From an uncultured Gammaproteobacteria bacterium (lineage in GTDB: Bacteria; Patescibacteriota; Patescibacteriia; UBA9934; GWF2-40-263), in NCBI GenBank assembly GCA_964573855.1, contig CAZNKO010000003.1:1-39086 (forward strand): 39,086 nt of DNA. Reading direction: 5' to 3'. This document shows, piece by piece, positions 489 through 24,708 of the stretch; the first letter of the stretch is position 1, and the number at the start of each line of letters is the position of its first letter. The notes beneath the pieces were generated by a model that searched no databases, had not been told where the DNA came from, and saw only the letters and a program-made list of their open reading frames with translations. The position numbers and the translations under genes were made by a program.

Positions 489-1037
489 ATGCCAAGCAGA
501 TCCGGCAACAATTTTGCTTTCATTGATGCCGCAAATCTTCATTTAGGCGTACAAAATCTTGGATGGAAATTAGATTATCGCCGTTTTAGGGTTTGGTTAC
601 GGGAGCGATTTGCCGTCCAAAAAGCTTACATCTTTATTGGTTATCAACCCGTGCAAGCAGATTTATATAGGGCTCTTCAGGAGTTTGGATACATTGTTGA
701 GTTTAAACCAGTTTTACAACTCCCGGATGGGAAGGTGAAGGGGAATTGTGATGCAGAACTCGTTTTGCGGGCTATGATTGATTTGGCAGATTACGAACGC
801 GCGGTCATTATTACCGGTGACGGAGATTTTCATTGTTTAGTAAAATATCTTGATGGAAAGAAAAAACTCGAAACATTAATTGCCCCAAGTCATCAAGGTT
901 GCTCTTCGCTACTCAAGAAATTACTTGGGAAGCGGATTATTTTTTTAGATCATTCGAAAGAGAAACTCGGCTATCGCCTATCCGAAAAGAAAAGGACCCC
1001 GTCGGGACGAAACCCGGCAGGGGACTTTTCATCGTGA
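489..1037 (+). CDS. NYN-domain (LabA/DUF88-like, PIN-fold) protein
   Basis: Motifs FIDAANL near the N-terminus, GNCDAELV, and ITGDGDF are typical of NYN/LabA-like proteins. The gene is clearly AT-richer than its neighbours. Confidence 0.7.
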   Translation: MPSRSGNNFAFIDAANLHLGVQNLGWKLDYRRFRVWLRERFAVQKAYIFIGYQPVQADLYRALQEFGYIVEFKPVLQLPDGKVKGNCDAELVLRAMIDLADYERAVIITGDGDFHCLVKYLDGKKKLETLIAPSHQGCSSLLKKLLGKRIIFLDHSKEKLGYRLSEKKRTPSGRNPAGDFSS

Positions 1038-4657: not shown

Positions 4658-6256
4658 ATGTCAAGAATGCGTGGAGAACGACGAGAGATGCCGCCAGAAG
4701 AACGGTTCGAGGCCGCGCGCCATGCGGCGCTCGAGCTGTTTCAACGTGCGACGAAAGCGGAGGCAAAGGCGCGATTCGATGGTCTCACCGGCCTTCGGCG
4801 AAACCACATTCTTGAAGGGGATTTGAAGTACGAATTCGAGAAACGCCGGGATCCGGCCTATCAGCGAGGGGCGATGTCAGGATTTTACGCGGACATTGAT
4901 CATTTCAAAATTTTCAACGACCAATACGGCCATGAGACGGGGGACGAAGTTCTTGCTTCGACGGGTCGGATCCTCCGGGAGGAGATCGAGCGCGCAGTGA
5001 AAGAAGGGAAAGTCGCGAAAGGAGCGTACGCCGCGCGCCGATACGACCGCGGCGAGGAACTGGTCGGGATTTTCCCAGGAACGGAGGCCGCACGCGTCCG
5101 GGGTGTTATTGAAAAAATTCGTCAGCGGCTTTCAGAGCTTGTCGTGTCCGCCGGAGGCGGATCCGCCTCTGGCGGAAAAGATATGGGTCGTCGGGTTAAA
5201 GAGGCCGTTACTATGAGCATCGGGCTCGCGGAGGTGGGGGACGACGATACACTGGATCGATTTCTTGGGAAGATCGAGCGGGCCGCGAAGTACGCAAAAG
5301 AAGAGCTTGGCCGGAATGCCGTGGCAGATTTTTCCGAAAAGATTGACGCGTGGGCAGAAGGAAAAGTGGAACCGCCCCGCGAGGCCGGTTTTGATCCGGA
5401 AGCGATCATGGAGGAAACGGAACGTGAAGAGGAGGCCCTCCCCGTGTTCCGCTCTGATGAGGAGCCGCCCGCGTCGATCCGGAACGCGATTACGGCCATT
5501 CGGGAACAGGCGTTTTATCCGTCATTTCCAGATCCGGACGCGTTTCTCGCCATGTTGAAGAAGCCGACGGATGGGGAAAAGATGGAGGCGCTCCTTTTTT
5601 ACCAACGGATCGTCGAGGAACGCGCGAAGCATTTGGAGCGGTTAAGTTCCGAGGATGCCTTGACCGGGGTGGAGAACCGATCAACGCTCATGGATCGCCT
5701 GGAGCAGGAGCTCCAGATTGCACAACAAGAGCGCCGCGAGAAGAAAGAAGGGGAGCCGCGCGAGGTGAGCGTTCTCTTGGTAGATCTTGATTTTTTCAAG
5801 AAAGTGAATGATACGTACGGAAACAAAATTGCCGACGGCGTTCTTCGAGACGCGGGCAAGATTCTCCGGGACTTTACGAAGGAGAATAAGGATATCATCG
5901 CGTCCACCGGCCGCTCGGGTGGTGAAGAGTTTGTGGTCATTTTGCCTGCCACAAAGAAATCCGACGCCATGAAGGTCGCAGAACGTTTGCGATCCGAGTT
6001 TGAGGGAACGAAGATGGACCTTCCAGGTGGGCGCGAACATCGCCAGACGCTTTCGGTCGGGGTGGCCTCCACCTCTGACTTTGACCCGGACGAGCCTCTC
6101 TCCGTGAACGCTTTGCTCCAAAAAGCGGACATGAGCGTGTATCGCTCCAAAGCGGACGGGCGCAATCGCGCGACCGCCTACAGCCCCGAGGTCCAAAGGT
6201 GGTATGAGGAGGAGCAGGAGAAGCGGCGGAAGAAAACCGTGGTGCTCCTCCGGTAG
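4658..6256 (+). CDS. tandem GGDEF-domain protein (N-terminal degenerate, C-terminal canonical diguanylate cyclase)
   Basis: Domain 1: DGLTGLRRN ... DIDHFKIFNDQYGHETGD ... RGEEL in place of GGEEF. Domain 2: DALTGVENR ... DLDFFKKVNDTYGN ... GGEEFVVILP ... ADMSVYRSKADGRNR. Confidence 0.85.
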   Translation: MSRMRGERREMPPEERFEAARHAALELFQRATKAEAKARFDGLTGLRRNHILEGDLKYEFEKRRDPAYQRGAMSGFYADIDHFKIFNDQYGHETGDEVLASTGRILREEIERAVKEGKVAKGAYAARRYDRGEELVGIFPGTEAARVRGVIEKIRQRLSELVVSAGGGSASGGKDMGRRVKEAVTMSIGLAEVGDDDTLDRFLGKIERAAKYAKEELGRNAVADFSEKIDAWAEGKVEPPREAGFDPEAIMEETEREEEALPVFRSDEEPPASIRNAITAIREQAFYPSFPDPDAFLAMLKKPTDGEKMEALLFYQRIVEERAKHLERLSSEDALTGVENRSTLMDRLEQELQIAQQERREKKEGEPREVSVLLVDLDFFKKVNDTYGNKIADGVLRDAGKILRDFTKENKDIIASTGRSGGEEFVVILPATKKSDAMKVAERLRSEFEGTKMDLPGGREHRQTLSVGVASTSDFDPDEPLSVNALLQKADMSVYRSKADGRNRATAYSPEVQRWYEEEQEKRRKKTVVLLR

Positions 6257-6649: not shown

Positions 6650-6698
6650 AAAATACGTGCCATTTGCTATACTGGGGGCAATTAACCAGGAGGATTTC

Positions 6699-7907
6699 AT
6701 GCCCCCCAAAAAGATTCCGGCGAGAAAAGTGCCGGTGCGCACCCCGCCTCCCGAGCCGGAAACCCTGCCCGAGGAAGCCATGGAGGTGGCGGCCCGCCCG
6801 CCGACGACCCTCTATCGCCGCATTGCGGTGAGTTTCGTCGTGCTGGTCGCGCTCATTTTGCTCGCGGTCTTGTACGTCTCCACCGTCCAGGCCACCATCC
6901 GCGTGAAGCCCGTGTCAGAGGTGGTGAAGGCCGAGCTCCTCCTCGATGTGGTGGAGATTCCGACCCAGCCGAATGAAGTGCGCGGCCGTGTGGTGTCCGG
7001 CACGCTCGGGAAGAGTGAGACGTTCAAGCCGAGCGGCGAGGGAACGAAACAAGCTGAAGGAACCGCACGCGGAACCGTCACGATCAAGAACACATCCGGG
7101 AGCGCCCAGGCGCTTGTCGTGAACACGCGGCTCCTTTCAAAAGAAGGCGTGCTGTTCCGTCTGGATGCGGATGTGAGCGTGCCGGCGAATGGAAGTGTTC
7201 AGGCAAAGGTGCATGCGGACAAACCTGGAGTTGCGGGCGATAGTGGTCCGACCACGTTTACAATTCCGGGTTTGAATGAGGCGAAACAAAAGCAGGTGTT
7301 TGCGGAAAGCACGGAGGCGTTTTCCGGCGGGGTTCGGAGCATCAAAGTCATCAGTCAAGCGGATATTGACGGGGCTGCCGCGACATTGAAAGCTGCGCTC
7401 GAGGGCGAGGCCAAAGAGATGTTGCGAGAGACCGTGAGCAATCTCTACAGCGGCGAGGCCTTTGGAACCGAAGTAGTTGAGGTAACCCCAAGCGTGGAGC
7501 CGGGCGTCGAAGCCGACGAGTTTTCCGTGGAGATGTCCGTGAAGGTCACCGGCGTCTTCTTTGACCGTAAGACGGTCGAGGATCTCGCGGTTGCCCGGCT
7601 TTACCAGTCTCTTGGCGCCGGCCGCCGGTTTGCGGGCATCAACACCCAAAGTCTGCAGGCCTCCATTGATAAAGCGGATCTCGAGGGAGAACAGGCGAGC
7701 ATCAACGTGTATCTTGATGGCCGCGCCGTGCCCTCGGCCGCGAGCGCGGCCCTCGATCCGGGCCGGTTTGTCGGGAAATCACCAGCGGAAGTGAAGAGTA
7801 TGCTCGTCCTCGAAGGGGTGGCGCTCGACGTTCAAGTGGATCTCTCGCCCTTTTGGGTGCGCAAGGTGCCGCGCCTCAAGGATCATATTTACGTGGAGAT
7901 TGAGTAA
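6699..7907 (+). CDS. hypothetical single-pass membrane protein
   Basis: AGGAGG lies 6 nt before ATG 6699. A Pro-rich N-terminus is followed by the TM helix IAVSFVVLVALILLAVLYV and a large extracytoplasmic domain. I recognised no family. Confidence 0.75.
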   Translation: MPPKKIPARKVPVRTPPPEPETLPEEAMEVAARPPTTLYRRIAVSFVVLVALILLAVLYVSTVQATIRVKPVSEVVKAELLLDVVEIPTQPNEVRGRVVSGTLGKSETFKPSGEGTKQAEGTARGTVTIKNTSGSAQALVVNTRLLSKEGVLFRLDADVSVPANGSVQAKVHADKPGVAGDSGPTTFTIPGLNEAKQKQVFAESTEAFSGGVRSIKVISQADIDGAAATLKAALEGEAKEMLRETVSNLYSGEAFGTEVVEVTPSVEPGVEADEFSVEMSVKVTGVFFDRKTVEDLAVARLYQSLGAGRRFAGINTQSLQASIDKADLEGEQASINVYLDGRAVPSAASAALDPGRFVGKSPAEVKSMLVLEGVALDVQVDLSPFWVRKVPRLKDHIYVEIE

Positions 7908-17150: not shown

Positions 17151-18023
17151 TCAAGAATTATTTAAACTGCGATAGAGGAGCGTGTCTGCGATGACGAAGA
17201 GGGGATTTATGATGGCGGCGATCGCGAGCGGGAACACGGTGATGGAAACCGAAGAAAGCCTGGCATACACGTCCAGGTTTAAACCCGCGGCTGCCGCGAT
17301 GAAGACATTCATGACGTAACCCACGACCGTGAGGGCGATAAGGCCGAACAAGGCGAAGACGAGCTTTGGGATGACCAAGCGCCAAAATACGGCCCAGAAA
17401 CGGCCGTGCACAAGCGTGCGGCTTCGGTGCATGGATTCAACGCTCTTCCGGTTTTCAAAGATCGGGAGGTAGGGGGCAAAAAAGTATTCAATGCTCCACC
17501 GGATCGTTAACACAAAGGCCACAATGATTGCGACTGCGATAAGGACGTTTCCAAGAATGAGGAGGGGGTTCCATTGAAGCCAATTTCCAAGGACGAGAAG
17601 AATGGCCACCGGCCCTCCGCTCACGACGAGCGCGAGGAGGACAAGGGCACCGACGAGGATCGCAGCTCCGAGCGAAGGGAGGAATTGGGATTTCGCTTCC
17701 CGCATGGCGCGGCCGGCCGTGACCCGGTGGCCTTCGTCCTGCGCCTTTGCGGCGCGGAGCAGGGAGACGAAAATCCAGAAACCGAGGAGCGGGCCCACCA
17801 TATACGTCGCGACAATGTAGAGGACCAGTCCGAAGGTTTCGGAAGCCGTGAGGCCGGCTCCGGAGACGAGGGTCCGGGCATTTGGGTAAAAGGCGATCGC
17901 AACGATATCAAGGAGGATGACGGCCGCGATCCAACCGGAAATGCCGAGGTAAAGGGGCCAGGCGGCACGATACCGCTCCCAGCTTTGATCAATGAGCTCG
18001 CCGATCGAAATGAGTTTGGACAT
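17151..18023 (-). CDS. polytopic membrane protein (paralog of previous gene)
   Basis: Same architecture and shared motif as the 16409-17146 protein; only a 4-nt spacer separates the two genes. Confidence 0.7.
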   Translation of the reverse strand: MSKLISIGELIDQSWERYRAAWPLYLGISGWIAAVILLDIVAIAFYPNARTLVSGAGLTASETFGLVLYIVATYMVGPLLGFWIFVSLLRAAKAQDEGHRVTAGRAMREAKSQFLPSLGAAILVGALVLLALVVSGGPVAILLVLGNWLQWNPLLILGNVLIAVAIIVAFVLTIRWSIEYFFAPYLPIFENRKSVESMHRSRTLVHGRFWAVFWRLVIPKLVFALFGLIALTVVGYVMNVFIAAAAGLNLDVYARLSSVSITVFPLAIAAIINPLFVIADTLLYRSLNNS

Positions 18024-18031
18024 AGGGGACT

Positions 18032-18135
18032 AAATTCGAAATGTTGAAAATTCGAAATCCGAAGAAGGAGAAACAAATTTTAAAATTCGAATTTTGAATT
18101 TTTTCGGATTTTCTATTTTTCGAATTTCGGATTTC
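18032..18135. repeat. AT-rich TTCGAA-based tandem and inverted repeats
   Basis: AAATTCGAAAT, GAAAATTCGAAATCCGAAG ... AAAATTCGAATTTT ... TTCGGATTTTC ... TTTTTCGAATTTCGGATTTC. The repeats fill the tmk to membrane-protein spacer. Confidence 0.7.
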
Positions 18136-18817
18136 ATACGGATAGGATGGGGAGGACGAGTCCCCAGACGCGCTCATGAATGCTTTCAATCGAGAGGAGC
18201 TGTCCGTTCTCGACACATTCCACCACCCGGAAATCGTTTGGGAAGCGCTCGGCCATTTCGAGGTACGTTTTTTCCGCGGCCTCGATATGCTTCACATCCG
18301 TTTCGAGGATATCGCGGGCGATCTTCGCTTTCCAGCCCCCACGCTGTTTGGTGAGCTCCATCGCAATCGCAGCCGGCACATGCAGAATGATATTGATGTC
18401 GGGCTTTGGGGTTTGGAGAAGTTCGTGCTCGATCTCCCTGTCCCAGGTGAAAAATTTTCCTCGCTCTGCCGGATCCTCGATGTGAGACCCTTGGTGTCCC
18501 ATGTTCGCGCTCACATACCGATCAGCCACGACATGCTTGCCGCTCTCGAGCCAGTCCCGAATTTGGAACGAGGCGTCGAACCGGTCCACGGCGTAGAGGA
18601 GGGAGGCCCGATACGGTCCCACCGTTTTGGCCGAACCGTAGGCACCCGAGAGATATTCTTCCACAGGCCCGGCACTCTTTTTGCCGTACTGCGGGAAAGC
18701 GATGGTCTCGACCGGCCCGTGCTCGAACTTCATTCGGTTAATAAGGAGCTTGGTCTGGGTGGCTTTGCCAGATCCGTCTGTGCCGTCAATCACGATGAGT
18801 TTCCCGCGCCGAACCAT
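18134..18817 (-). CDS. tmk: thymidylate (dTMP) kinase family
   Basis: P-loop IVIDGTDGSGKATQ, DRY motif (VADRYVSAN), and lid region. Confidence 0.9.
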   Translation of the reverse strand: MVRRGKLIVIDGTDGSGKATQTKLLINRMKFEHGPVETIAFPQYGKKSAGPVEEYLSGAYGSAKTVGPYRASLLYAVDRFDASFQIRDWLESGKHVVADRYVSANMGHQGSHIEDPAERGKFFTWDREIEHELLQTPKPDINIILHVPAAIAMELTKQRGGWKAKIARDILETDVKHIEAAEKTYLEMAERFPNDFRVVECVENGQLLSIESIHERVWGLVLPILSV

Positions 18818-18835
18818 AGGAAAGATTATAGCAGA

Positions 18836-19267
18836 TTAGCCCGTCGTACCCCAGCCGCCCCGTGAGGGCGCCGTGAGCGTCTCGGCTTCGATGAATTTTG
18901 CGTGTGCGACAGGGAGGAAGAGCCCTTGGGCGAGCCGTTCGCCCTTTTCGATCGTGTAGGGTGCGGTCCCCTCGTTCAGGAGGGCGAGATGGAGCTCATC
19001 CCCCGGCCCGCAATAATCAGGATCGATGATGCCGATGCTGTTCGTAAGCCGGATGCCCTTTTTTGCGTTCGATGAGCGTGAGGCAATGATCAACACATAT
19101 CCTTCGGGGACGCACACAACGAGTCCGGTTTTGACGAATGCGCGTTCGCCGGGCGCAACCGTGACGGATTCGCTGACCGCGATGTCGAATCCAACGGCTC
19201 CTTTTGTTTTATACTCCGGCAGGGGGACGTCGGACCCCATCCGCTTGATATGCACAGCCAAGTCCAT
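18836..19267 (-). CDS. dut: trimeric dUTP diphosphatase
   Basis: AVGFD, SRSS, GIIDPDYCGP, and C-terminal RGGWGTTG (motif V). Confidence 0.9.
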   Translation of the reverse strand: MDLAVHIKRMGSDVPLPEYKTKGAVGFDIAVSESVTVAPGERAFVKTGLVVCVPEGYVLIIASRSSNAKKGIRLTNSIGIIDPDYCGPGDELHLALLNEGTAPYTIEKGERLAQGLFLPVAHAKFIEAETLTAPSRGGWGTTG

Positions 19268-19325
19268 AACTTCGATATGTTAGCCCAAATCTTTGCCATT
19301 TGGAATGCCAGCGAGGTTTGGTAAG

Positions 19326-20171
19326 ATGGCGGCAGCTATGACGATATTTGACCGCCTTTATCTCGACACCCTGCGTCGAATTTATACGGAAGGGGAAATG
19401 GTGTACAGCCATCGGACCGGCTACGCGACAAAAGCGTTGCCAGGGGTTACGTATGAACTTGAACCGGCTAAAGGGTTCCCTCTTTTGACCGTCCGGAAGA
19501 TGTTCCCGAAGTTTTTTTGCGCGGAGATGGTCTGGTTCATCGCCGGGCACAAACACGCGGGTTTCCTCCAGCAATTTACAAAAGGGTGGGATGAATTTCT
19601 TGAGCCGGATGGCACGGTTGAGACCGCTTACGGTTATCGTTGGCGGCATCACTTCGGCCGCGATCAGCTCGTGGATCTCGTTGAACACCTGCGGGAGGAG
19701 CCGACCTCCCGTCAAGGGGTCGTTCTTATGTGGGACCCGGCTTCCGACGGCCTGCGCGCCCCGAAAAAGAAAAATGTCCCCTGTCCGTTTTGCTGGACCG
19801 CGAACGTCATCGGCGGCAAATTAAACCTCCATCTTGTCATCCGTTCGAACGACATGGTTCTCGGCAACCCGAACGATGTCGCGGATTTTGCTCTCTTGCA
19901 AGCAATCCTTGCCCAGGAGCTCGGGCTCGGTATTGGAAAACTCACGATCTCGATCTCCCACGCGCACATTTATGAAAACCAGTTTGATGCGGTGAATGAT
20001 ATTCTCTCACGTGACGTTCCTGTACATCCTGAAATTGTCTGTCGGCTCCCGGAGAACACTTTTCAACGCGCGCTTCAGGCCGACGCGGAACTTGTCCACG
20101 AATTGATCGAGATGTTCAAGGGCCAGTACCAACCGCTTGCGCCCATGAAAAAGATGCAGATCGCCGTATGA
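19326..20171 (+). CDS. thymidylate synthase (ThyA) family protein with Asp at the Asn177-equivalent position
   Basis: HRTGYAT, GWDEF, TSRQGVVLMWD, catalytic Cys in VPCPF, IRSNDMVLGNPNDVADFALL, HAHIYENQ, and TS-like C-terminus KKMQIAV. The start is uncertain (19305, 19326 or 19338); a GAGG 9 nt upstream favours 19326. Confidence 0.85.
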   Translation: MAAAMTIFDRLYLDTLRRIYTEGEMVYSHRTGYATKALPGVTYELEPAKGFPLLTVRKMFPKFFCAEMVWFIAGHKHAGFLQQFTKGWDEFLEPDGTVETAYGYRWRHHFGRDQLVDLVEHLREEPTSRQGVVLMWDPASDGLRAPKKKNVPCPFCWTANVIGGKLNLHLVIRSNDMVLGNPNDVADFALLQAILAQELGLGIGKLTISISHAHIYENQFDAVNDILSRDVPVHPEIVCRLPENTFQRALQADAELVHELIEMFKGQYQPLAPMKKMQIAV

Positions 20172-20665
20172 ACGTCATTCTCATCGCGGCAGTCTCCGCG
20201 GATGGCAAAATTGCCTCCGACGAAGGCCAATCGTCGCTCACGTGGACTTCCAAAGAAGACACGAAGTTTTTTGTTTCCAAAACCAAAGAGATCGGCACGG
20301 TTGTGATGGGGCGGAAGACGTTTGAAACGATCGGCAAGCCGCTCAAGGACCGGCGCATCATCGTCATGACGCATAAGCCAGCCATTTCGCAGATGATTGG
20401 CGTGGAATTTACAGCCGAGGAGCCGCAAGCACTTCTCTTACGGCTCGAGAAAGAAGGAGTGAAGGCGGTCGCGATTGCGGGCGGGGCGCAGGTGTACCGC
20501 ACTTTTTTGGACGCCAACCTTGTCGATGAGATGTTTTTGACGATTGAACCTATCCTCTTCGGCTCCGGTATGCCGCTGGTTGATCACGGCTCTGCAAAAA
20601 AACTCGAACTTCTCGCGTCGAGCCCTCTTGGCCCTGGCATCCTCCTGCATTTTCGTGTTCTCTAA
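20168..20665 (+). CDS. dihydrofolate reductase-like protein (RibD C-terminal/DHFR family)
   Basis: MNVILIAAVSADGKIA ... VVMGRKTFETIG ... IAGGAQVYRTFL. There is an ATGA overlap with the ThyA-family gene. Confidence 0.75.
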   Translation: MNVILIAAVSADGKIASDEGQSSLTWTSKEDTKFFVSKTKEIGTVVMGRKTFETIGKPLKDRRIIVMTHKPAISQMIGVEFTAEEPQALLLRLEKEGVKAVAIAGGAQVYRTFLDANLVDEMFLTIEPILFGSGMPLVDHGSAKKLELLASSPLGPGILLHFRVL

Positions 20666-20666
20666 C

Positions 20667-20745
20667 GTCCCCCTTTTCAAGGGGGACTACAGGGGGTTAC
20701 CGTAGCTTCGGTAACCTCCCCTAACCCCTCCTTGAAAAGGAGGGG
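20667..20745 (+). promoter_or_regulatory. three consecutive perfect hairpins; the third sequesters the SD of the downstream gene
   Basis: GTCCCCC-TTTTCAA-GGGGGAC (20667-20687). GGTTACCG-TAGCTT-CGGTAACC (20695-20716). CCCCTCCTT-GAA-AAGGAGGGG (20725-20745), whose 3' arm is the AAGGAGG SD located 8 nt before ATG 20752. Confidence 0.6.
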
Positions 20746-20751
20746 GGCACT

Positions 20752-21690
20752 ATGGCTGAATCAATCGCTCAAAAAGTAAGCGAGGTGAAATACCCCTACA
20801 TGCCGGAGGGGCGCGTGTTTAAGTTCGTACCCGAGAACGATCCGTTTATGGCCGAAGCAAAAAAGGCGCGCGAGACGCTTTCGGGCGATCCGCTCTTTCC
20901 GGTCGGCATGGTGCTCGTGAAAGACGGGAAGATTATTGCGCGTGCCGGAAACGGATTCAACAAAGGCGGCGGCGCGGTGCACGTCTGTCCTCGCATCGTT
21001 CTTGAGTCTCCGAGTGGAACCGGCTATGACCTTTGTCACCTCCACGACGCTCCCGGGCACGCCGAGCCAATGGTCATTGAGACCGCGCGGAAGGCAGGCG
21101 TTGATCCAAAAGGCGCTGACGGTTACATGTACGGCCACTGGTGGTGTTGCGAGCCGTGTTGGAAATCCATGCTCGATGCGGGTGTGCGCGACGTGTACCT
21201 TCTCGAAAACGCTCACGAGGTGTTTTCGCGCGATCATGTCTACGCCGAAACGCTCAAACCAAAGTGCAAAACCGTTTATATTGCAGGCGGACTTACGAAT
21301 TTGTCCGAACAGATTCGTGGTCTACAGAAGGGATTGTATGAAAAGCTTGCCGGCGCGGCCGAGGAGCTCGGTCTCACTGCGTATGTGCCGCATCATCACA
21401 GCGACCCCATTGTGCATCCAAAGATCTCACCGCGCGAAGTCTACGAGATGGATATCAAGCTCGTGAAAAACTATGATGTGATTGTCGCGGAGGTTTCCTA
21501 TCCCTCGCTCGGAGTCGGCGGGGAGCTTGTCGTCGCCAAGGACGCAGGAAAGAAGATCGTCCTACTCTCCAAAAAAGGCATTCCCGTCACGCGTTTCGTC
21601 CGCGGCAACCCCGCAGTCGTGTATCACATCGAATACGAAACCCCCGAGGCCGCGTGCAGGATGTTGAAGAATGTATTGAAGCAAATATAG
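20752..21690 (+). CDS. fusion: dCMP/cytidine-deaminase-fold domain + nucleoside 2-deoxyribosyltransferase/DNPH1(Rcl)-like domain
   Basis: N-terminal half: VGMVLVKDGKIIARAGNG, zinc motifs HAE (PGHAEPM) and CxxC (CCEPC). C-terminal half: VYIAGGL ... DVIVAEVSYPSLGVGGELVVAKDAGKKIVLL, as in NDT/Rcl-fold proteins. Confidence 0.75.
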   Translation: MAESIAQKVSEVKYPYMPEGRVFKFVPENDPFMAEAKKARETLSGDPLFPVGMVLVKDGKIIARAGNGFNKGGGAVHVCPRIVLESPSGTGYDLCHLHDAPGHAEPMVIETARKAGVDPKGADGYMYGHWWCCEPCWKSMLDAGVRDVYLLENAHEVFSRDHVYAETLKPKCKTVYIAGGLTNLSEQIRGLQKGLYEKLAGAAEELGLTAYVPHHHSDPIVHPKISPREVYEMDIKLVKNYDVIVAEVSYPSLGVGGELVVAKDAGKKIVLLSKKGIPVTRFVRGNPAVVYHIEYETPEAACRMLKNVLKQI

Positions 21691-21692
21691 AT

Positions 21693-22097
21693 ATGGACAA
21701 TGAAAGTAACACTTTGCTTTGGACGATTGTAAACGTAGCAGCGGTTTTACTTAGTCCGCTTATCGCTCTGTCGATTGGGGATATCCTTCAACGGAGGAAT
21801 CAATATCGAGCTCAGAGGTTTGACGTGCTAAGGAGAATTATCTCTTTTAGTTACCAACTACATCCAGACACTACTCGGAACGACGAATTTTTAAGTGCAT
21901 TATTAGAAATTAAATTTTGGTATCATCGCGATCGCCAAATTATTGGTGCTTGGATGACATTCCACAATAAGCTAGTAAGCGGAGCAGACGGAACCGACGA
22001 GCTGTATAAACTCATGGAGCTTCTTATTAAGAAAGAAAAACTTAAACTTTCTCACGCTGAGCTCGTAGCTACCTTATACGGTAAATATCGTAAATAG
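21693..22097 (+). CDS. hypothetical N-terminally anchored membrane protein, AT-rich gene
   Basis: ATG 21693 (MDNESNTLLWTIVNVAAVLLSPLIALSIG...). GC is markedly lower than the flanks. No family recognised. Confidence 0.55.
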   Translation: MDNESNTLLWTIVNVAAVLLSPLIALSIGDILQRRNQYRAQRFDVLRRIISFSYQLHPDTTRNDEFLSALLEIKFWYHRDRQIIGAWMTFHNKLVSGADGTDELYKLMELLIKKEKLKLSHAELVATLYGKYRK

Positions 22098-22100
22098 CGA

Positions 22101-22157
22101 CTAAATCCAGAACCGCTTCTTGAGCTCGTCGAGTTTGCCTTCGGTGAGCGCGTGGCG
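22101..22157 (-). pseudogene. orphan copy of the last 18 codons plus stop of the dcd-family gene
   Basis: The minus strand reads RHALTEGKLDELKKRFWI*, against RHALMEGKLDELKKRFEI* at the real 3' end (22850-22906). DNA identity is 44/57, with mostly synonymous differences. Confidence 0.7.
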
Positions 22158-22337
22158 CAATGAGATAGATCGTGATCGCGGCGACATTCAATGTCGCATA
22201 TGCGATGTGGAATGATAGACGCACTAATTGAACGGCCGTCCAGTTAATGCGTGCGCTAAAAAAAGGACTGACTGCCAAAAGCACCATATGGTGCTTTTTA
22301 CAGACAGCCCGTCGGTGCTTAATGTTCATCCTCTTGA

Positions 22338-22378
22338 CGAAAAGAAAAACCCCGTCGCGCGGCGTGCGTGAGCGGGGA
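22338..22378 (-). terminator. intrinsic terminator after ORF 22403-22795
   Basis: The minus strand reads CCCCGCTCACGCACGCCGCGCGACGGGG followed by TTTTTCTTTT. A second perfect palindrome, AAAAGCACCATATGGTGCTTTT, is at 22277-22298. Confidence 0.6.
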
Positions 22379-22402
22379 AGTGTGTTGTGTGTCGGACGCA
22401 CG

Positions 22403-22795
22403 TTACTGCGGGAGTTCGAAGAGAGCTTCGGGCGGTTCGGTGATGATGCACGTCGCCCTTCCTTCACCCACTTCACTGCCCGCGAACTTTCCGGTCCAGA
22501 ACTGATCCGCCAGCCAGAACGTGTACAAGATCTCGTCCGGTCGGTCGTTGTATCGTTTGGTGAATCGGATCTGGTCTTTCGTTACGGCGATGTTGTAGAG
22601 GATCGAGGTTCCCGCCGCGTCCCTCATGTAGCCACACAGGGCTCCGCTTTCGTCTGTGTAAATCACGCCAGCGAACATGTAGTTGAAGGTGCCATCGACG
22701 ACAATAACCTCGTGCCCCTTCGCCCGTTCTTCACCGCGGGCAAGGTCCAAGACCTGCCTGCGTTGGAAGAAATACCCTTGAATGAAACGTACCAC
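22403..22795 (-). CDS. hypothetical protein (130 aa)
   Basis: GTG start preceded by AAAGGAGG at 5-nt spacing, with its own terminator. No family recognised (…TKDQIRFTKRYNDRPDEILYTFWLADQFWTGKF…). Confidence 0.65.
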   Translation of the reverse strand: MVRFIQGYFFQRRQVLDLARGEERAKGHEVIVVDGTFNYMFAGVIYTDESGALCGYMRDAAGTSILYNIAVTKDQIRFTKRYNDRPDEILYTFWLADQFWTGKFAGSEVGEGRATCIITEPPEALFELPQ

Positions 22796-22849
22796 GCTTG
22801 CCTCCTTTGTTTGGGCAATAAAACCACGGTCAGCTTACTTGATAAGTCA

Positions 22850-23506
22850 TTAAATTTCAAACCGTTTCTTGAGTTCGTCCAATTTTCCTTCCATGAGCGC
22901 GTGGCGTTCTTCGTCTTTGTCGAGTTGAAAACCGGAAGAGCCGGTGCCGCTGTATTTGGCTTGCGTGACGCCGTGGAGGTTCGCTTCCTCCTGCGAGAGC
23001 GGCTGGGTGAGCTCCTGAAAGATCACCTGGCATACGCGCTCGCCGGGATAGATGCGGAGCACTTGGTCGCCGGCTTCGTTTTTCATCGGGAAGATGAGAT
23101 GGCCGTTGTAGCCCGTGTCGATGATACCGGAGAGGGAGAGGTCAATGCCGCGGCGGTTGGTCGAGGTGCGCGGGAAGAGGAGAGCCATGAGTTTTGGCGC
23201 GTTCATTTCGATGCGCTCGAGCGACATGCCGATCACGAATTCGTTTGGGAGGAGTTCAAAATATTGCCCGGGCTTTAAATAGACTTCGTCAAATTGTCCT
23301 TGATAGACCGACGGGTCATCGATCGAGATTTTGAGCGCGCGCCGCCCTTTTTCATCCATGGTCCAGTTTTTTGGAATCAAAAATTTGTACCCAAGCCGCA
23401 GGTCCACCGCATGCGGCTGGAGCTGGAACTGGTCGAGTTCTGGGGTGAAGCGGATCTCGCCACGCTTCACGGCCTCGAGGATTTCCCGGCGGGTGATGAT
23501 GGCCAT
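22850..23506 (-). CDS. dCTP deaminase (Dcd)/dUTPase-superfamily protein lacking the catalytic Glu
   Basis: AVDLRLG, PRTSTNRRG (compare GRSSLARLG), and GIIDTGYNGHLIFPMKN (compare RIDPGWSGCIVLEFYN). Pro aligns with E. coli Glu138. An extra C-terminal helix is present. Confidence 0.85.
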   Translation of the reverse strand: MAIITRREILEAVKRGEIRFTPELDQFQLQPHAVDLRLGYKFLIPKNWTMDEKGRRALKISIDDPSVYQGQFDEVYLKPGQYFELLPNEFVIGMSLERIEMNAPKLMALLFPRTSTNRRGIDLSLSGIIDTGYNGHLIFPMKNEAGDQVLRIYPGERVCQVIFQELTQPLSQEEANLHGVTQAKYSGTGSSGFQLDKDEERHALMEGKLDELKKRFEI

Positions 23507-23517
23507 AACGGGGGATT

Positions 23518-24017
23518 GGTTCGGTGCTACGCGATCGGGCGCGGGAAGTCGGACGGTTCGGTCGCAGAGAGCAGACGGTTCGGTTATTGTTTGAGAAAAT
23601 CTCGCAGGTGCAATAATTTGAAGTAAAGCGTTGCGATTTTGGAACGGAGTCCTTGTTCCGCTTCAGATGAAATGTAGCCCAAACCAACGGCCGTGGCAAA
23701 ACATTCGCGCACTTCAAGCAAGGAGCGGGTCGCGATCGTCACGAACCGCGCATTATCGGCTTTTGTCCCGCCGCTCCCTTCCGCGATGTTTAATGAAACG
23801 GAAACAGCCGCGCGTCTCGCCTGGTTTCCCAGTCCCCCGGCGAAGATTTCCTCGCGCGGCCATGAGCGCGTAATGAGATAGACCTCAATGGTCAAAGCCC
23901 GCGAGAGTTTGACGACTTCCAGTTGTTCGTAACGAAATTCCATAACCGAACAGCCGCAGGCACCGAACCAAGCGACGACAGCCGAACGCTGCTCACCGTC
24001 GTCAGGCAGCACCGAAC
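23518..24017. repeat. IVS-like long inverted repeat (GGTTCGGT/ACCGAACC arms) carrying a four-helix-bundle ORF in its loop
   Basis: The left arm (23518-23585) has three GTTCGGT cores and the right arm (23944-24017) has four CCGAAC cores. The arm ends closely match the ORF-less element at 34415-34557. Confidence 0.7.
23584..23943 (-). CDS. four-helix-bundle protein (23S rRNA intervening-sequence protein family)
   Basis: MEFRYEQLEVVKLSRALTIEVY...GNQARRAAVSVSLNIAEGSGG...ATRSLLEVRECF matches the family pattern. I prefer ATG 23943 over the track's 24012. Confidence 0.8.
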   Translation of the reverse strand: MEFRYEQLEVVKLSRALTIEVYLITRSWPREEIFAGGLGNQARRAAVSVSLNIAEGSGGTKADNARFVTIATRSLLEVRECFATAVGLGYISSEAEQGLRSKIATLYFKLLHLRDFLKQ

Positions 24018-24018
24018 A

Positions 24019-24708
24019 TTAAGTACCCTGTGCAACTTCGACCTGGATCCCCGGGCCCATGGTGGAGCTGATCGTGGCGCTCCGGATGAAGATGCCTTTT
24101 GAGGACGGCGGTTTCAGTTTCTTGACCGCCTCAAGAAGCGCGGTCAGGTTTTCTTTGAGCTGTGTTTCGTTGAACGAGGCGCGGCCGAACACCTGGTGGA
24201 GGTTGCCGAGCGTATCGTTCTTGAAACTCTGCTTGCCGGCTTTTTGTTCCGCGACCATCTTTGAGACGTTGGCACCCACCGTGTCGGTCTTTGGGTTCGG
24301 CATGAGGCCTTTGGGCCCCAGAAGTTTCGCGAGTTTCGCGAGCTTCGGCATCATGGTTGGGGTTGCGACCGCGACGTCGAAGTTGAGGATGCTCTTTTGA
24401 GAGATTTCCGCGATGAGTTCCTCGCCGCCGATCAAGTCCGCTCCGGCGCTCTTCGCCTCGGCTTCCTTGGCCGGTTCAACAAGGGCCGCGACTTTTTTGG
24501 TTTTGCCGACGCCGTGCGGGAGGGCAATGGTGCCGCGGACCTGCTGGTCGCCCTTGGTGGCATCAATCCCGAGCTTCACATGGAGCTCGACCGCTTCGTC
24601 AAACTTCGCGGTCGCGGTCTTTTTGAGGAGTGCGACGGCCTCATCGAGCGTGTACGCTTTTTTCGTGTCTACGAGTTTCTTGGCCTCCTTGAATCGTTTG
24701 CCTGGCAT
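24019..24708 (-). CDS. rplA: 50S ribosomal protein L1
   Basis: MPGKRFKEAKKLVD...GTIALPHGVGK...LGPKGLMPNPKTDTV. The start is at ATG 24708. Confidence 0.95.
   Translation of the reverse strand: MPGKRFKEAKKLVDTKKAYTLDEAVALLKKTATAKFDEAVELHVKLGIDATKGDQQVRGTIALPHGVGKTKKVAALVEPAKEAEAKSAGADLIGGEELIAEISQKSILNFDVAVATPTMMPKLAKLAKLLGPKGLMPNPKTDTVGANVSKMVAEQKAGKQSFKNDTLGNLHQVFGRASFNETQLKENLTALLEAVKKLKPPSSKGIFIRSATISSTMGPGIQVEVAQGT

Follow-up and report, generated by a model that had tools for sequence, protein, structure and literature searches.

We analysed a stretch of 39,086 nucleotides (positions 1 to 39,086 of the forward strand of contig CAZNKO010000003.1, GenBank assembly GCA_964573855.1; hereafter called the window) that contains, at positions 18134-23506, a cluster of pyrimidine deoxynucleotide genes. 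In textbook dTMP synthesis, dUMP is methylated by either ThyA or ThyX. The cluster, in contrast, is best explained as a housekeeping thymidylate pathway in which methylation would precede deamination. We regard the chances as evenly balanced that such a route, leading from dCTP via dCMP, 5-methyl-dCMP and dTMP to dTDP, operates in this Uhrbacterium, an ultra-small CPR bacterium, and in many other Patescibacteria. The preliminary description of this DNA had already suggested a cellular pathway from dCTP to dCMP and on to a 5-substituted dCMP. Comparative sequence evidence supports this suggestion, namely the active-site signature of a ThyA homologue, the kinship of this protein with phage enzymes, the loss of the catalytic Glu138 in a Dcd-like protein and the conserved synteny of the cluster.

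The ThyA homologue has the active-site signature of phage 5-methyl-dCMP synthases

The ThyA-family gene (Pfam Thymidylat_synt, PF00303, 4.6e-53) is found at 19338-20171 on the forward strand. Its open reading frame (ORF) is listed as 19293-20171, and the ATG at 19338 is backed as the start codon by the 277-amino-acid length of the homologues. In HMMER alignments to solved structures (E. coli numbering is used for this protein throughout), the window sequence RSNDMVLGNPNDVADF lies opposite the sequence RSADVFLGVPFNIASY of thymidylate synthase (TS), which means that Asn177 is replaced by Asp. In the same alignments NVPCP stands opposite LAPCH, and thus His147 is replaced by Pro and Leu143 by Asn. 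Further changes are Trp83 to Phe and Arg127 to Gln. Retained are Cys146, Glu58, Trp80, Tyr94, Arg21, Arg126, Arg166, Ser167, Asp169, His207 and Tyr209, as well as a hydrophobic, TS-like C-terminus (..MQIAV) that is conserved among the homologues. Compared with a canonical ThyA, the protein therefore has the TS fold and the catalytic residues, but not Asn177, His147 and Leu143. The Asp177/Pro147/Asn143 pattern is present in 120 of the 120 best ThyA homologues, and Asp177 together with NVPCP in all of the 82 related loci described below.

References were E. coli ThyA, Dcd, Dut and Tmk, M. tuberculosis TMPK and Dcd, T. maritima ThyX and T4 gp42. For ThyA, Dcd and TMPK, HMMER alignments to chains from the PDB gave independent confirmation of the key positions, and the gp42 reference was checked and is 100% identical to PDB 1B49. 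The residue deviations that the preliminary description had pointed out in enzymes of the cluster survive the alignment to solved structures and are family-wide (120/120; 82/82; and 55/55 in the case of the Dcd-like protein).

At the E. coli positions 21/58/80/83/94/126/127/143/146/147/166/169/177/207/209 the signature of the ThyA homologue is REWFYRQNCPRDDHY, to be compared with REWFYRRNCPRDDHY in PaMx74, REWWYRRLCHRDNHY in E. coli and KEWVYRRDCTRDDHY in T4 gp42. It matches the enzymes of the phages PaMx74, ZQG1 and Mallos at 14 of the 15 positions, with D177, N143 and D169 being identical. Overall identity to the PaMx74 enzyme is ~36%, and the best phage matches, which include Mallos, ZQG1, PaMx28 and PaMx74, are 35-37% identical. 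In a distance tree, the clade of the window ThyA groups with PaMx74, ZQG1 and Mallos, and T4 gp42, at 19% identity, falls outside. Moreover, a search of 1.84 billion representative proteins recovers Asp177 in 129 of the 150 nearest cluster representatives, the commonest signature among them being Phe83, Gln/His/Arg127, Asn143, Cys146 and Pro147; canonical Trp-Arg-Leu-Cys-His...Asn enzymes rank lower. One relative with Asp177 (P0382) has an N-terminal HNH endonuclease domain, and three others (P0489, P0491, P0500) are hybrids that combine Asp177 with the canonical Trp83/Arg127/Leu-or-Ile143 background.

The significance of these positions is known from previous work. Asn177Asp makes TS a dCMP methylase, which was shown in two TS enzymes, and Asp179Asn in the T4 hydroxymethylase causes the reverse switch (references quoted in PMC8670742). 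No other positions separate modified-cytosine from unmodified contigs as well as 177 and 147 do (PMC8670742). The Xp12 enzyme and five of seven tested metaviromic Asp177 enzymes produce 5-methyl-dC in vivo, and in the DNA of Xp12 and PaMx74 cytosine is wholly replaced by 5-methylcytosine (5mC) (bioRxiv 10.1101/2024.12.05.627091). An acidic residue at position 143 is linked to hydroxymethylation and Asp169Asn to 5-hydroxylation (PMC13326640). Finally, Ser167 and Arg126' are marks of a deoxyribose substrate, and hydroxymethylases do not need dihydrofolate reductase (DHFR) and lack the C-terminal lid of TS (PMC5175136).

Read in this way, Asp177 indicates a cytosine substrate, Ser167 and Arg126' indicate deoxyribose, and Asn143 (as in PaMx74), Asp169, the TS-like C-terminus and the coupled DHFR indicate a methyl product. 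The ThyA homologue is predicted to be a dCMP C5-methyltransferase (5-methyl-dCMP synthase, EC 2.1.1.54) that would release dihydrofolate. It combines Asp177 with a non-acidic residue 143 and Asp169, has the deoxyribose-type pocket formed by Ser167 and Arg126', and is associated in the genome with a DHFR, a dCMP-family deaminase and a candidate pyrophosphatase. A T4-type dCMP hydroxymethylase (EC 2.1.2.8) is contradicted by Asn143, the full TS-like C-terminus and the 19% identity to gp42, a 5-hydroxy-dCMP synthase of the RB69/DLP3 type by the invariant Asp169 (no Asp169Asn), and a CMP substrate of the MilA/BcmA type by the retained Ser167 and Arg126'.

The Dcd-like protein has lost the catalytic glutamate

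The Dcd-like gene of the dUTPase superfamily (22850-23506, reverse strand; Pfam DCD, 4e-25) shows a second substitution of this kind. In HMMER alignments to solved dCTP deaminases, its GHLIFPMKN lies opposite GQITLELFN or GHITLELSN, the catalytic Glu138 being replaced by Pro. Pro138 is found in 120 of 120 Dcd-like homologues, in which Arg115 and Asp128 are kept, and likewise in 55 of the 55 Dcd-like genes that neighbour the ThyA homologue, all of which have R115 and D128. Thus, of the features of a Dcd (EC 3.5.4.13 / 3.5.4.30), the protein has the dUTPase-superfamily fold, Arg115 and Asp128, but not Glu138. Among solved structures it is closest to 4XJC and to the M. tuberculosis enzyme (2QXX/2QLP), the bifunctional dCTP deaminase:dUTPase, with E. 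coli Dcd scoring lower. Since Glu138 is replaced, the Dcd-like protein should be unable to deaminate by the known mechanism. We propose that it is a dCTP pyrophosphatase, a reaction of which the fold would still be capable.

A six-gene unit is conserved and syntenic across Patescibacteria

We scanned one genome per GTDB species (193 relatives) and analysed the best 80 of the 193 loci together with two metagenomic contigs of 652 kb and 281 kb. In the resulting 82 loci the 20 kb around each locus, which in several cases lies on a short contig, were searched with the window proteins by tblastn. The labels of the best 80 loci are Uhrbacteria, Nomurabacteria, Paceibacteria, Parcubacteria, Gracilibacteria, Peribacteria and Altimarinota, and one of these loci sits on a complete 1.33-Mb chromosome. 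The nearest named homologues are from Candidatus Uhrbacteria (72-87% identity). The ThyA homologue is present in 82 of the 82 loci, DHFR in 66, the deaminase in 64, the Dcd-like gene in 55, dut in 35, the NDT domain in 21 and tmk of the window type in 18. In 51 of the loci the ThyA homologue, DHFR, deaminase and Dcd-like gene occur together, and in some Gracilibacteria and Peribacteria the synthase is unlinked from the other cluster genes. Many loci (L013, L016, L018-L020, L028 and others) come from third-party-annotation records of metagenome-assembled genomes that bear the title 'uncultured Gammaproteobacteria bacterium' or 'Candidatus Saccharibacteria'. They carry an Uhrbacteria- or Paceibacteria-type locus, and the record names are unreliable for taxonomy.

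The gene order on the 652-kb and 281-kb contigs is gatB, two membrane ORFs, kinase, dut (on one of the contigs only), synthase, DHFR, deaminase, Dcd-like gene, rplA, rplK, nusG and gyrB. Most loci lie beside gatB, rplA or nusG, and the position between gatB and rplA-rplK-nusG is kept over dozens of species. Because neither residue change has an exception (82 loci for Asp177, 55 for Pro138) in loci that span many Patescibacteria classes and are mostly found beside gatB, rplA or nusG, we conclude that the unit is cellular and vertically inherited. The preliminary description had considered that a cellular, non-phage version of such a pathway would be unusual and had asked whether the gene order is conserved in related genomes; the cluster is indeed chromosomal, and its synteny is kept across the patescibacterial loci.

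The conserved unit consists of six genes: tmk, dut, the ThyA homologue, DHFR, the deaminase-family gene and the Dcd-like gene. The seven-gene supercluster that had been described before thus holds as far as these six genes are concerned. The DUF6680 ORF and the 130-amino-acid ORF, which lie between the deaminase and the Dcd-like gene in the window, do not belong to it, since tblastn finds no counterpart of either at any of the 82 loci. The gap between deaminase and Dcd-like gene is a variable slot whose contents are common to no two of three loci compared, the window, L001 and L007. In L001 (12537-14960) it holds an unknown 216-amino-acid ORF, a SET-domain protein, a NUDIX protein and a 127-amino-acid ORF, and in L007 (12533-16399) a subtilase with a prodomain.

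Fusion proteins tie steps of the proposed route to each other: P0386 is a deaminase::TS-Asp177, P0392 a PRA-PH::TS-Asp177 and P0192 a DHFR::deaminase::NDT fusion. A tblastn search with ThyX (the T. maritima query) gave no match within the 82 loci, a result that is silent on the rest of the genomes.

Kinase, Dut, DHFR and the deaminase fusion

The tmk gene (18134-18817, reverse strand; Pfam Thymidylate_kin, 1.5e-15) encodes a thymidylate kinase of the M. tuberculosis type. Its best solved relative is M. tuberculosis TMPK (E 2e-20), of which D9, K13, F36, Y39, R74, R95 and N100 are kept; F70 is replaced by Tyr and Y103 by His. Measured against dTMP kinases (EC 2.7.4.9), the P-loop, the DR(Y/H) motif and the counterparts of Arg74 and Asn100 are present. 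Arg74 and Asn100 of the M. tuberculosis enzyme contact the thymine base, and their retention favours dTMP as the substrate. This bears on how the route would end, for which either dTMP or a modified dNTP had originally been envisaged: the kinase tips the balance towards the dTMP branch. In L001 (9165-9875, reverse strand) and L003 (8751-9476, reverse strand) the place of the window tmk is taken by a different Tmk-family kinase that is 23-27% identical, and most Uhrbacteria loci have a divergent kinase beside the synthase that resembles Tmk or deoxynucleoside kinases (dNKs). It seems that one kinase has displaced another, non-orthologous one at the position next to the synthase. The substrate of the divergent kinase, dTMP or 5-methyl-dCMP, could decide between a thymidylate pathway and DNA modification, the two explanations that are weighed first below.

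The dut gene (18836-19267, reverse strand) encodes a canonical dUTPase. The DHFR gene (20168-20665, forward strand; Pfam DHFR_1 4.6e-21, RibD_C 4.7e-21) starts within the ThyA gene, whose stop codon it overlaps by 4 bp (ATGA), which suggests translational coupling. Where DHFR neighbours the ThyA homologue (66 of 82 loci), the two genes usually abut. The database labels of the cluster look ordinary because the ThyA homologue and Dut pass NCBIfam equivalogs (TIGR03284 with 121.1 against a cut-off of 108.35 for the former; PRK00601 with 113.6 against 103, and TIGR00576 as well, for the latter), while the Dcd-like protein (85 against 92.8 for TIGR02274) and Tmk (66.9 against 83.25) fall short of the cut-offs.

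The deaminase is the N-terminal half of a 312-amino-acid dCMP-deaminase::NDT fusion (20752-21690, forward strand; called with Pfam and NCBIfam). This half (20752-21255; Pfam dCMP_cyt_deam_1, 1.4e-10) scores far under the NCBIfam ComEB cut-off. The zinc motifs of dCMP deaminases (ComEB/DCTD), H-A-E and P-C-x-x-C, are present, and H103, E105, C133 and C136 are invariant. The best PDB deaminase match of the family profile is S. mutans dCMP deaminase 2HVV (E 3.4e-7). An insertion specific to Uhrbacteria (fusion residues 77-98, 20980-21048) has the invariant residues H77, C79, C95 and H98 and may form a second metal site; the cluster deaminases of other Patescibacteria classes lack this His/Cys insertion.

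The C-terminal half (21256-21690) is an N-glycosidase domain of the NDT fold that resembles DNPH1, MilB and BcmB in PDB sequence matches and in Foldseek. Its best sequence matches in the PDB are Rcl/DNPH1. An AlphaFold2 (AF2) model of the domain has a pLDDT of 94.6, and its top Foldseek hits are DNPH1, MilB and BcmB; NDTs also match. The nucleophile E258 (E104 in DNPH1) is present in 65 of 66 sequences, Y176 (Y24) in 64 and S252 (S98) in 65. Compared with DNPH1/Rcl, the domain thus has the fold, the Glu nucleophile, the Tyr of YxxG and the Ser of PSLG, but neither a general counterpart of Asp80 nor the phosphate loop, since G-S-I-R-G-G-R of DNPH1 is replaced by [AS]-G-[AG]-L-T-N. The NDT domain was detected in 21 of the 64 loci with a deaminase and is absent in the close relative L007. 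Because it is missing from most loci, we regard it as a lineage-specific accessory. One may speculate that the domain clears dUMP or another pyrimidine dNMP that is hazardous or a metabolic dead end.

The proposed route from dCTP to dTDP

In the proposed pathway the Dcd-like protein, which has lost the deaminase Glu and kept the nucleotide-binding core, would split dCTP into dCMP and pyrophosphate. The ThyA homologue, which would use dCMP because of Asp177, would transfer the one-carbon unit of 5,10-methylene-tetrahydrofolate onto dCMP, reduce it and so yield 5-methyl-dCMP and dihydrofolate, which the coupled DHFR would reduce to tetrahydrofolate. The domain of the dCMP-deaminase family would convert 5-methyl-dCMP to dTMP, Tmk would phosphorylate dTMP to dTDP, and Dut would keep dUTP low. 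The fused DNPH1/MilB-like domain may hydrolyse dUMP, which an Asp177 synthase would leave unconsumed. The activity of each enzyme, the flux direction and the phosphorylation level of the deaminase substrate are inferred from the sequences. Within the canonical pathway there is no reason for a dCMP-type synthase, for a Dcd that should not deaminate by the known mechanism or for a dCMP-family deaminase retained next to them. Each of the three would make sense if deamination had moved downstream of methylation.

Published work on phages provides precedents for parts of this scheme. The 'dCMP deaminases' adjacent to phage synthases can be 5mC-selective, and they were proposed to supply thymidine nucleotides to phages in a way that bypasses dUMP (bioRxiv 10.1101/2024.12.05.627091).

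A number of observations weigh against the proposal. First, mSCD-B5, the sole 5mC-selective phage deaminase characterised in vitro, takes 5-methyl-dCTP as its substrate but does not accept 5-methyl-dCMP, and 5mC selectivity of these deaminases is polyphyletic and has no published residue rule (bioRxiv 10.1101/2024.12.05.627091). The Uhrbacterial deaminase is only ~25% identical to Cd of PaMx74, which concerns both its substrate and the phosphorylation level. A deaminase that, like mSCD-B5, used the triphosphate would mean that 5mC enters DNA, and so would a kinase that took 5-methyl-dCMP. Second, position 176 of the ThyA homologue is Asn in the window, His in most Uhrbacteria, and Asn or His across Patescibacteria. 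TS has Phe at this position, the phage methylases have Tyr, and the T4 hydroxymethylase has Asn. Phe176 of TS contacts the folate. Third, the pyrophosphatase activity of the Dcd-like protein is argued solely from what that fold still permits, and a canonical dut inside the cluster fits the ordinary pathway equally well. Finally, the function suggested for the DNPH1-like domain is guesswork, and the counterpart of D80 of DNPH1 is Asp in only 23 of 66 sequences.

Relation to known systems

The closest analogue of the cluster is the module of the phages Xp12 and PaMx74. The preliminary description had drawn a parallel to phage T4. Of this, the likeness to a phage-type modified-dCMP pathway stands, but the model to compare with is the 5-methyl-dCMP module of Xp12/PaMx74 rather than T4. 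In both this module and the window, the functions of a pyrophosphohydrolase, a TS-Asp177, a deaminase and a DHFR are found adjacent to each other. In ZQG1 and PaMx74 the gene neighbours are a MazG/PRA-PH pyrophosphohydrolase, the synthase, a 'dCMP deaminase' and a DHFR; Mallos has a similar arrangement, but its upstream gene is annotated as a DNA-binding protein. The window version differs in that it is cellular, chromosomal and syntenic over a phylum. Its candidate pyrophosphatase is a Glu-less Dcd homologue, which would be a functional analogue and not a homologue of the phage MazG/PRA-PH. Moreover, it adds tmk and dut, its deaminase is in this lineage fused to an N-glycosidase domain, and the C-terminus of its ThyA homologue is TS-like (IAV), whereas the phage enzymes of the Xp12/PaMx74 type end in V[VI]E. 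The phage analogue has thus already been published. We found no report of a cellular version, and no publication in which an Asp177 synthase or 5-methyl-dCMP is connected with Patescibacteria or Uhrbacteria, within an incomplete coverage of the literature.

The hydroxymethyl-dCTP pathway of T4 (gp56, gp42 and gp1) shares with the proposed route the logic of dCTP to dCMP to a C5-modified dCMP and then to a kinase, as well as Asp at position 177. T4 gp42, however, is 19% identical, has Asp143, Thr147 and a truncated C-terminus, makes a hydroxymethyl product and has no need of DHFR. Gp56 and gp1 belong to protein families other than those of their counterparts in the window. With the canonical Dcd-Dut-ThyA-FolA-Tmk route (plus ComEB) the cluster shares the same six families and the thyA-folA operon structure. 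In contrast to that route, Asn177 and Glu138 are both replaced, invariantly and together, and the order of methylation and deamination would be reversed.

A TS homologue of the Asp type together with a nucleotide N-glycosidase of the NDT fold is also found in MilA/MilB and BcmA/BcmB. Unlike MilA and BcmA, the synthase of the window has Ser167, Arg126' and a non-acidic residue 143. The N-glycosidase domain differs from DNPH1, MilB and BcmB, as it lacks the conserved Asp80 counterpart and the SIRGG loop and is dispensable in most lineages. The deaminase::DNPH1-like fusion mirrors the clearance by human DCTD and DNPH1, which leads from 5-hydroxymethyl-dCMP via 5-hydroxymethyl-dUMP to the free base.

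Alternative explanations

The same enzymes could serve DNA modification rather than thymidylate supply, which we consider rather unlikely. 5-Methyl-dCMP would then be phosphorylated to 5-methyl-dCTP and enter the chromosome, where pool-derived 5mC would replace much or all of the cytosine; the Dcd-like protein would be a dCTPase that depletes dCTP, and the deaminase would draw dTMP or dTTP from the 5-methyl pool. The only characterised modules of TS-Asp177, deaminase, pyrophosphohydrolase and DHFR are indeed those of phages with all-5mC DNA, whose gene order resembles that of the window, and a protein suited as a dCTPase is conserved together with the cluster. With a deaminase that works at the triphosphate level, like mSCD-B5, the pool would have to include 5-methyl-dCTP, and the divergent Tmk/dNK-like kinase of most Uhrbacteria could be a 5-methyl-dCMP kinase. 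The kinase of the window, however, keeps the counterparts of Arg74 and Asn100, which read thymine in M. tuberculosis TMPK, and this favours dTMP. Cells moreover need dCTP to be regulated and not eliminated, unless replacement is total, and the literature yields no report of globally modified patescibacterial DNA. The G+C content of ~40-58% (from the strain names of homologues; ~55% in the window) argues weakly in the same direction, since it is unlike that of an all-5mC genome decaying from C to T. It is improbable that in Uhrbacteria and many other Patescibacteria genomic cytosine gives way, wholly or in large part, to 5mC made at the nucleotide level. If it did, these would be the first cellular organisms with a chromosome-wide, pool-derived non-canonical base.

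It is also unlikely that the cluster encodes the ordinary pathway, in which the deaminase would make dUMP from dCMP and Dut from dUTP, the ThyA homologue would methylate dUMP despite Asp177, DHFR and Tmk would have their usual roles, and the Dcd-like protein would be either a regulatory relic or an additional dUTPase. In its favour, the cluster has precisely the gene families of the canonical route, Dut is canonical, and the ThyA homologue passes the TIGR03284 equivalog, is labelled thymidylate synthase in the sources and keeps Cys146, Glu58, Tyr94, Asp169, His207, Tyr209 and a TS-like C-terminus. Against this stands the Asn177Asp exchange, which in two TS enzymes shifts the specificity to dCMP, with T4 Asp179Asn having the opposite effect (PMC8670742), and the fact that natural Asp177 enzymes gave 5-methyl-dC in vivo (bioRxiv 10.1101/2024.12.05.627091). 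Furthermore, by signature and tree the nearest kin of the ThyA homologue are phage dCMP methylases and not cellular TS, and the ordinary pathway leaves the correlated, invariant loss of the Dcd Glu unexplained, as it does Pro147 and Asn143.

Another C5 product, 5-hydroxymethyl-dCMP or 5-hydroxy-dCMP, which the fusion protein would process to hydroxymethyl-dUMP or to a free modified base, is very unlikely. Such a route would serve to make a metabolite or a hypermodified base, or to sanitise nucleotides, in analogy to MilA/MilB, BcmA/BcmB and DCTD/DNPH1. The structural neighbours of the NDT domain, DNPH1 (a 5-hydroxymethyl-dUMP hydrolase) and MilB/BcmB (hydroxymethyl-CMP hydrolases), are in line with it, as are Asn at position 176, which is shared with T4 gp42, and the polar residue in place of Leu143. 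In addition, MilB and BcmB each partner a TS homologue of the Asp type (PMC5175136). Residue 143, however, is the non-acidic Asn of the 5mC phage PaMx74, Asp169 is kept without any 5-hydroxy signature, and Ser167 and Arg126' mean a deoxy substrate, unlike that of MilA/BcmA. The TS-like C-terminus, which the T4 hydroxymethylase is without, is kept, and DHFR, unneeded by hydroxymethylases, is tightly coupled (PMC5175136). Finally, most loci with the other cluster genes are without the N-glycosidase domain, which cannot, therefore, define the pathway.

It is scarcely credible that the genes are a prophage remnant or an island acquired from a phage, or that they defend against phages by depleting nucleotides, and we reject this explanation. 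The TS-Asp177 clade is best known from phages, and defence systems include proteins of the dCTP deaminase family. The chromosomal position, however, is kept over dozens of species, the G+C content is flat over the cluster, and PADLOC gives no defence-system match for it. Viral contigs are at most 48% identical, none of those with a TS-Asp177 contains the Dcd-like gene, and hardly any phage relatives of the Dcd-like protein exist.

Remaining ORFs and chromosomal surroundings

The eight ORFs of the region were confirmed at the places and in the orientations first described; domain calls of the window ORFs were made with Pfam and NCBIfam. The DUF6680 ORF (21654-22097, forward strand; called with Pfam and NCBIfam) has one hydrophobic helix. 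For the 130-amino-acid ORF (22403-22795, reverse strand) no family was found in Pfam, NCBIfam, PHROG or PADLOC, and its single-sequence AF2 model, with a pLDDT of 45, is too low in confidence to use. A 343-amino-acid ORF (22247-23278, forward strand) runs antisense to the Dcd-like gene and the 130-amino-acid ORF and is most likely a shadow ORF of the G+C-rich stretch. A scan of 18000-24100 for promoters and terminators found sites no more numerous than in shuffled sequences.

Upstream of the cluster are dnaE, a gene for a GGDEF protein, thrS, miaB, miaA, gatB and genes for two membrane proteins, and downstream are a 23S-rRNA-intervening-sequence-type (IVP) gene, rplA, rplK, nusG, gyrB, ftsW, prmC and prfA. 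The surroundings are core chromosome. The IVP-type gene (23584-24012, reverse strand), which encodes a four-helix bundle, sits between the Dcd-like gene and rplA. The window also encodes a GGDEF diguanylate-cyclase protein (4658-6256, forward strand), a 416-amino-acid ORF with a weak Baseplate_J-like match (6657-7907, forward strand; E 8e-5) and an NYN-domain protein (489-1037, forward strand), which are odd company for a reduced genome.

Implications

If a thymidylate pathway with early methylation is indeed what the cluster encodes, its products would be of practical use, as a source of new 5mC-acting deaminases and of a Dcd-derived pyrophosphatase as reagents. The annotation of thymidylate synthesis would change in thousands of Patescibacteria genomes, in which the labels 'thymidylate synthase' and 'dCTP deaminase' are concerned. 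The finding also raises the question of whether pool-derived 5mC occurs in any cellular genome, and Patescibacteria cells with the cluster might incorporate 5-methylcytosine from the nucleotide pool into their DNA. For phages, these bacteria would represent a cellular reservoir or origin of DNA-modification enzymes. A large bacterial radiation would use a third arrangement of thymidylate synthesis, in which dCMP is methylated first and deaminated later, a chemistry that has so far been documented only in phages whose DNA has 5mC in place of cytosine.

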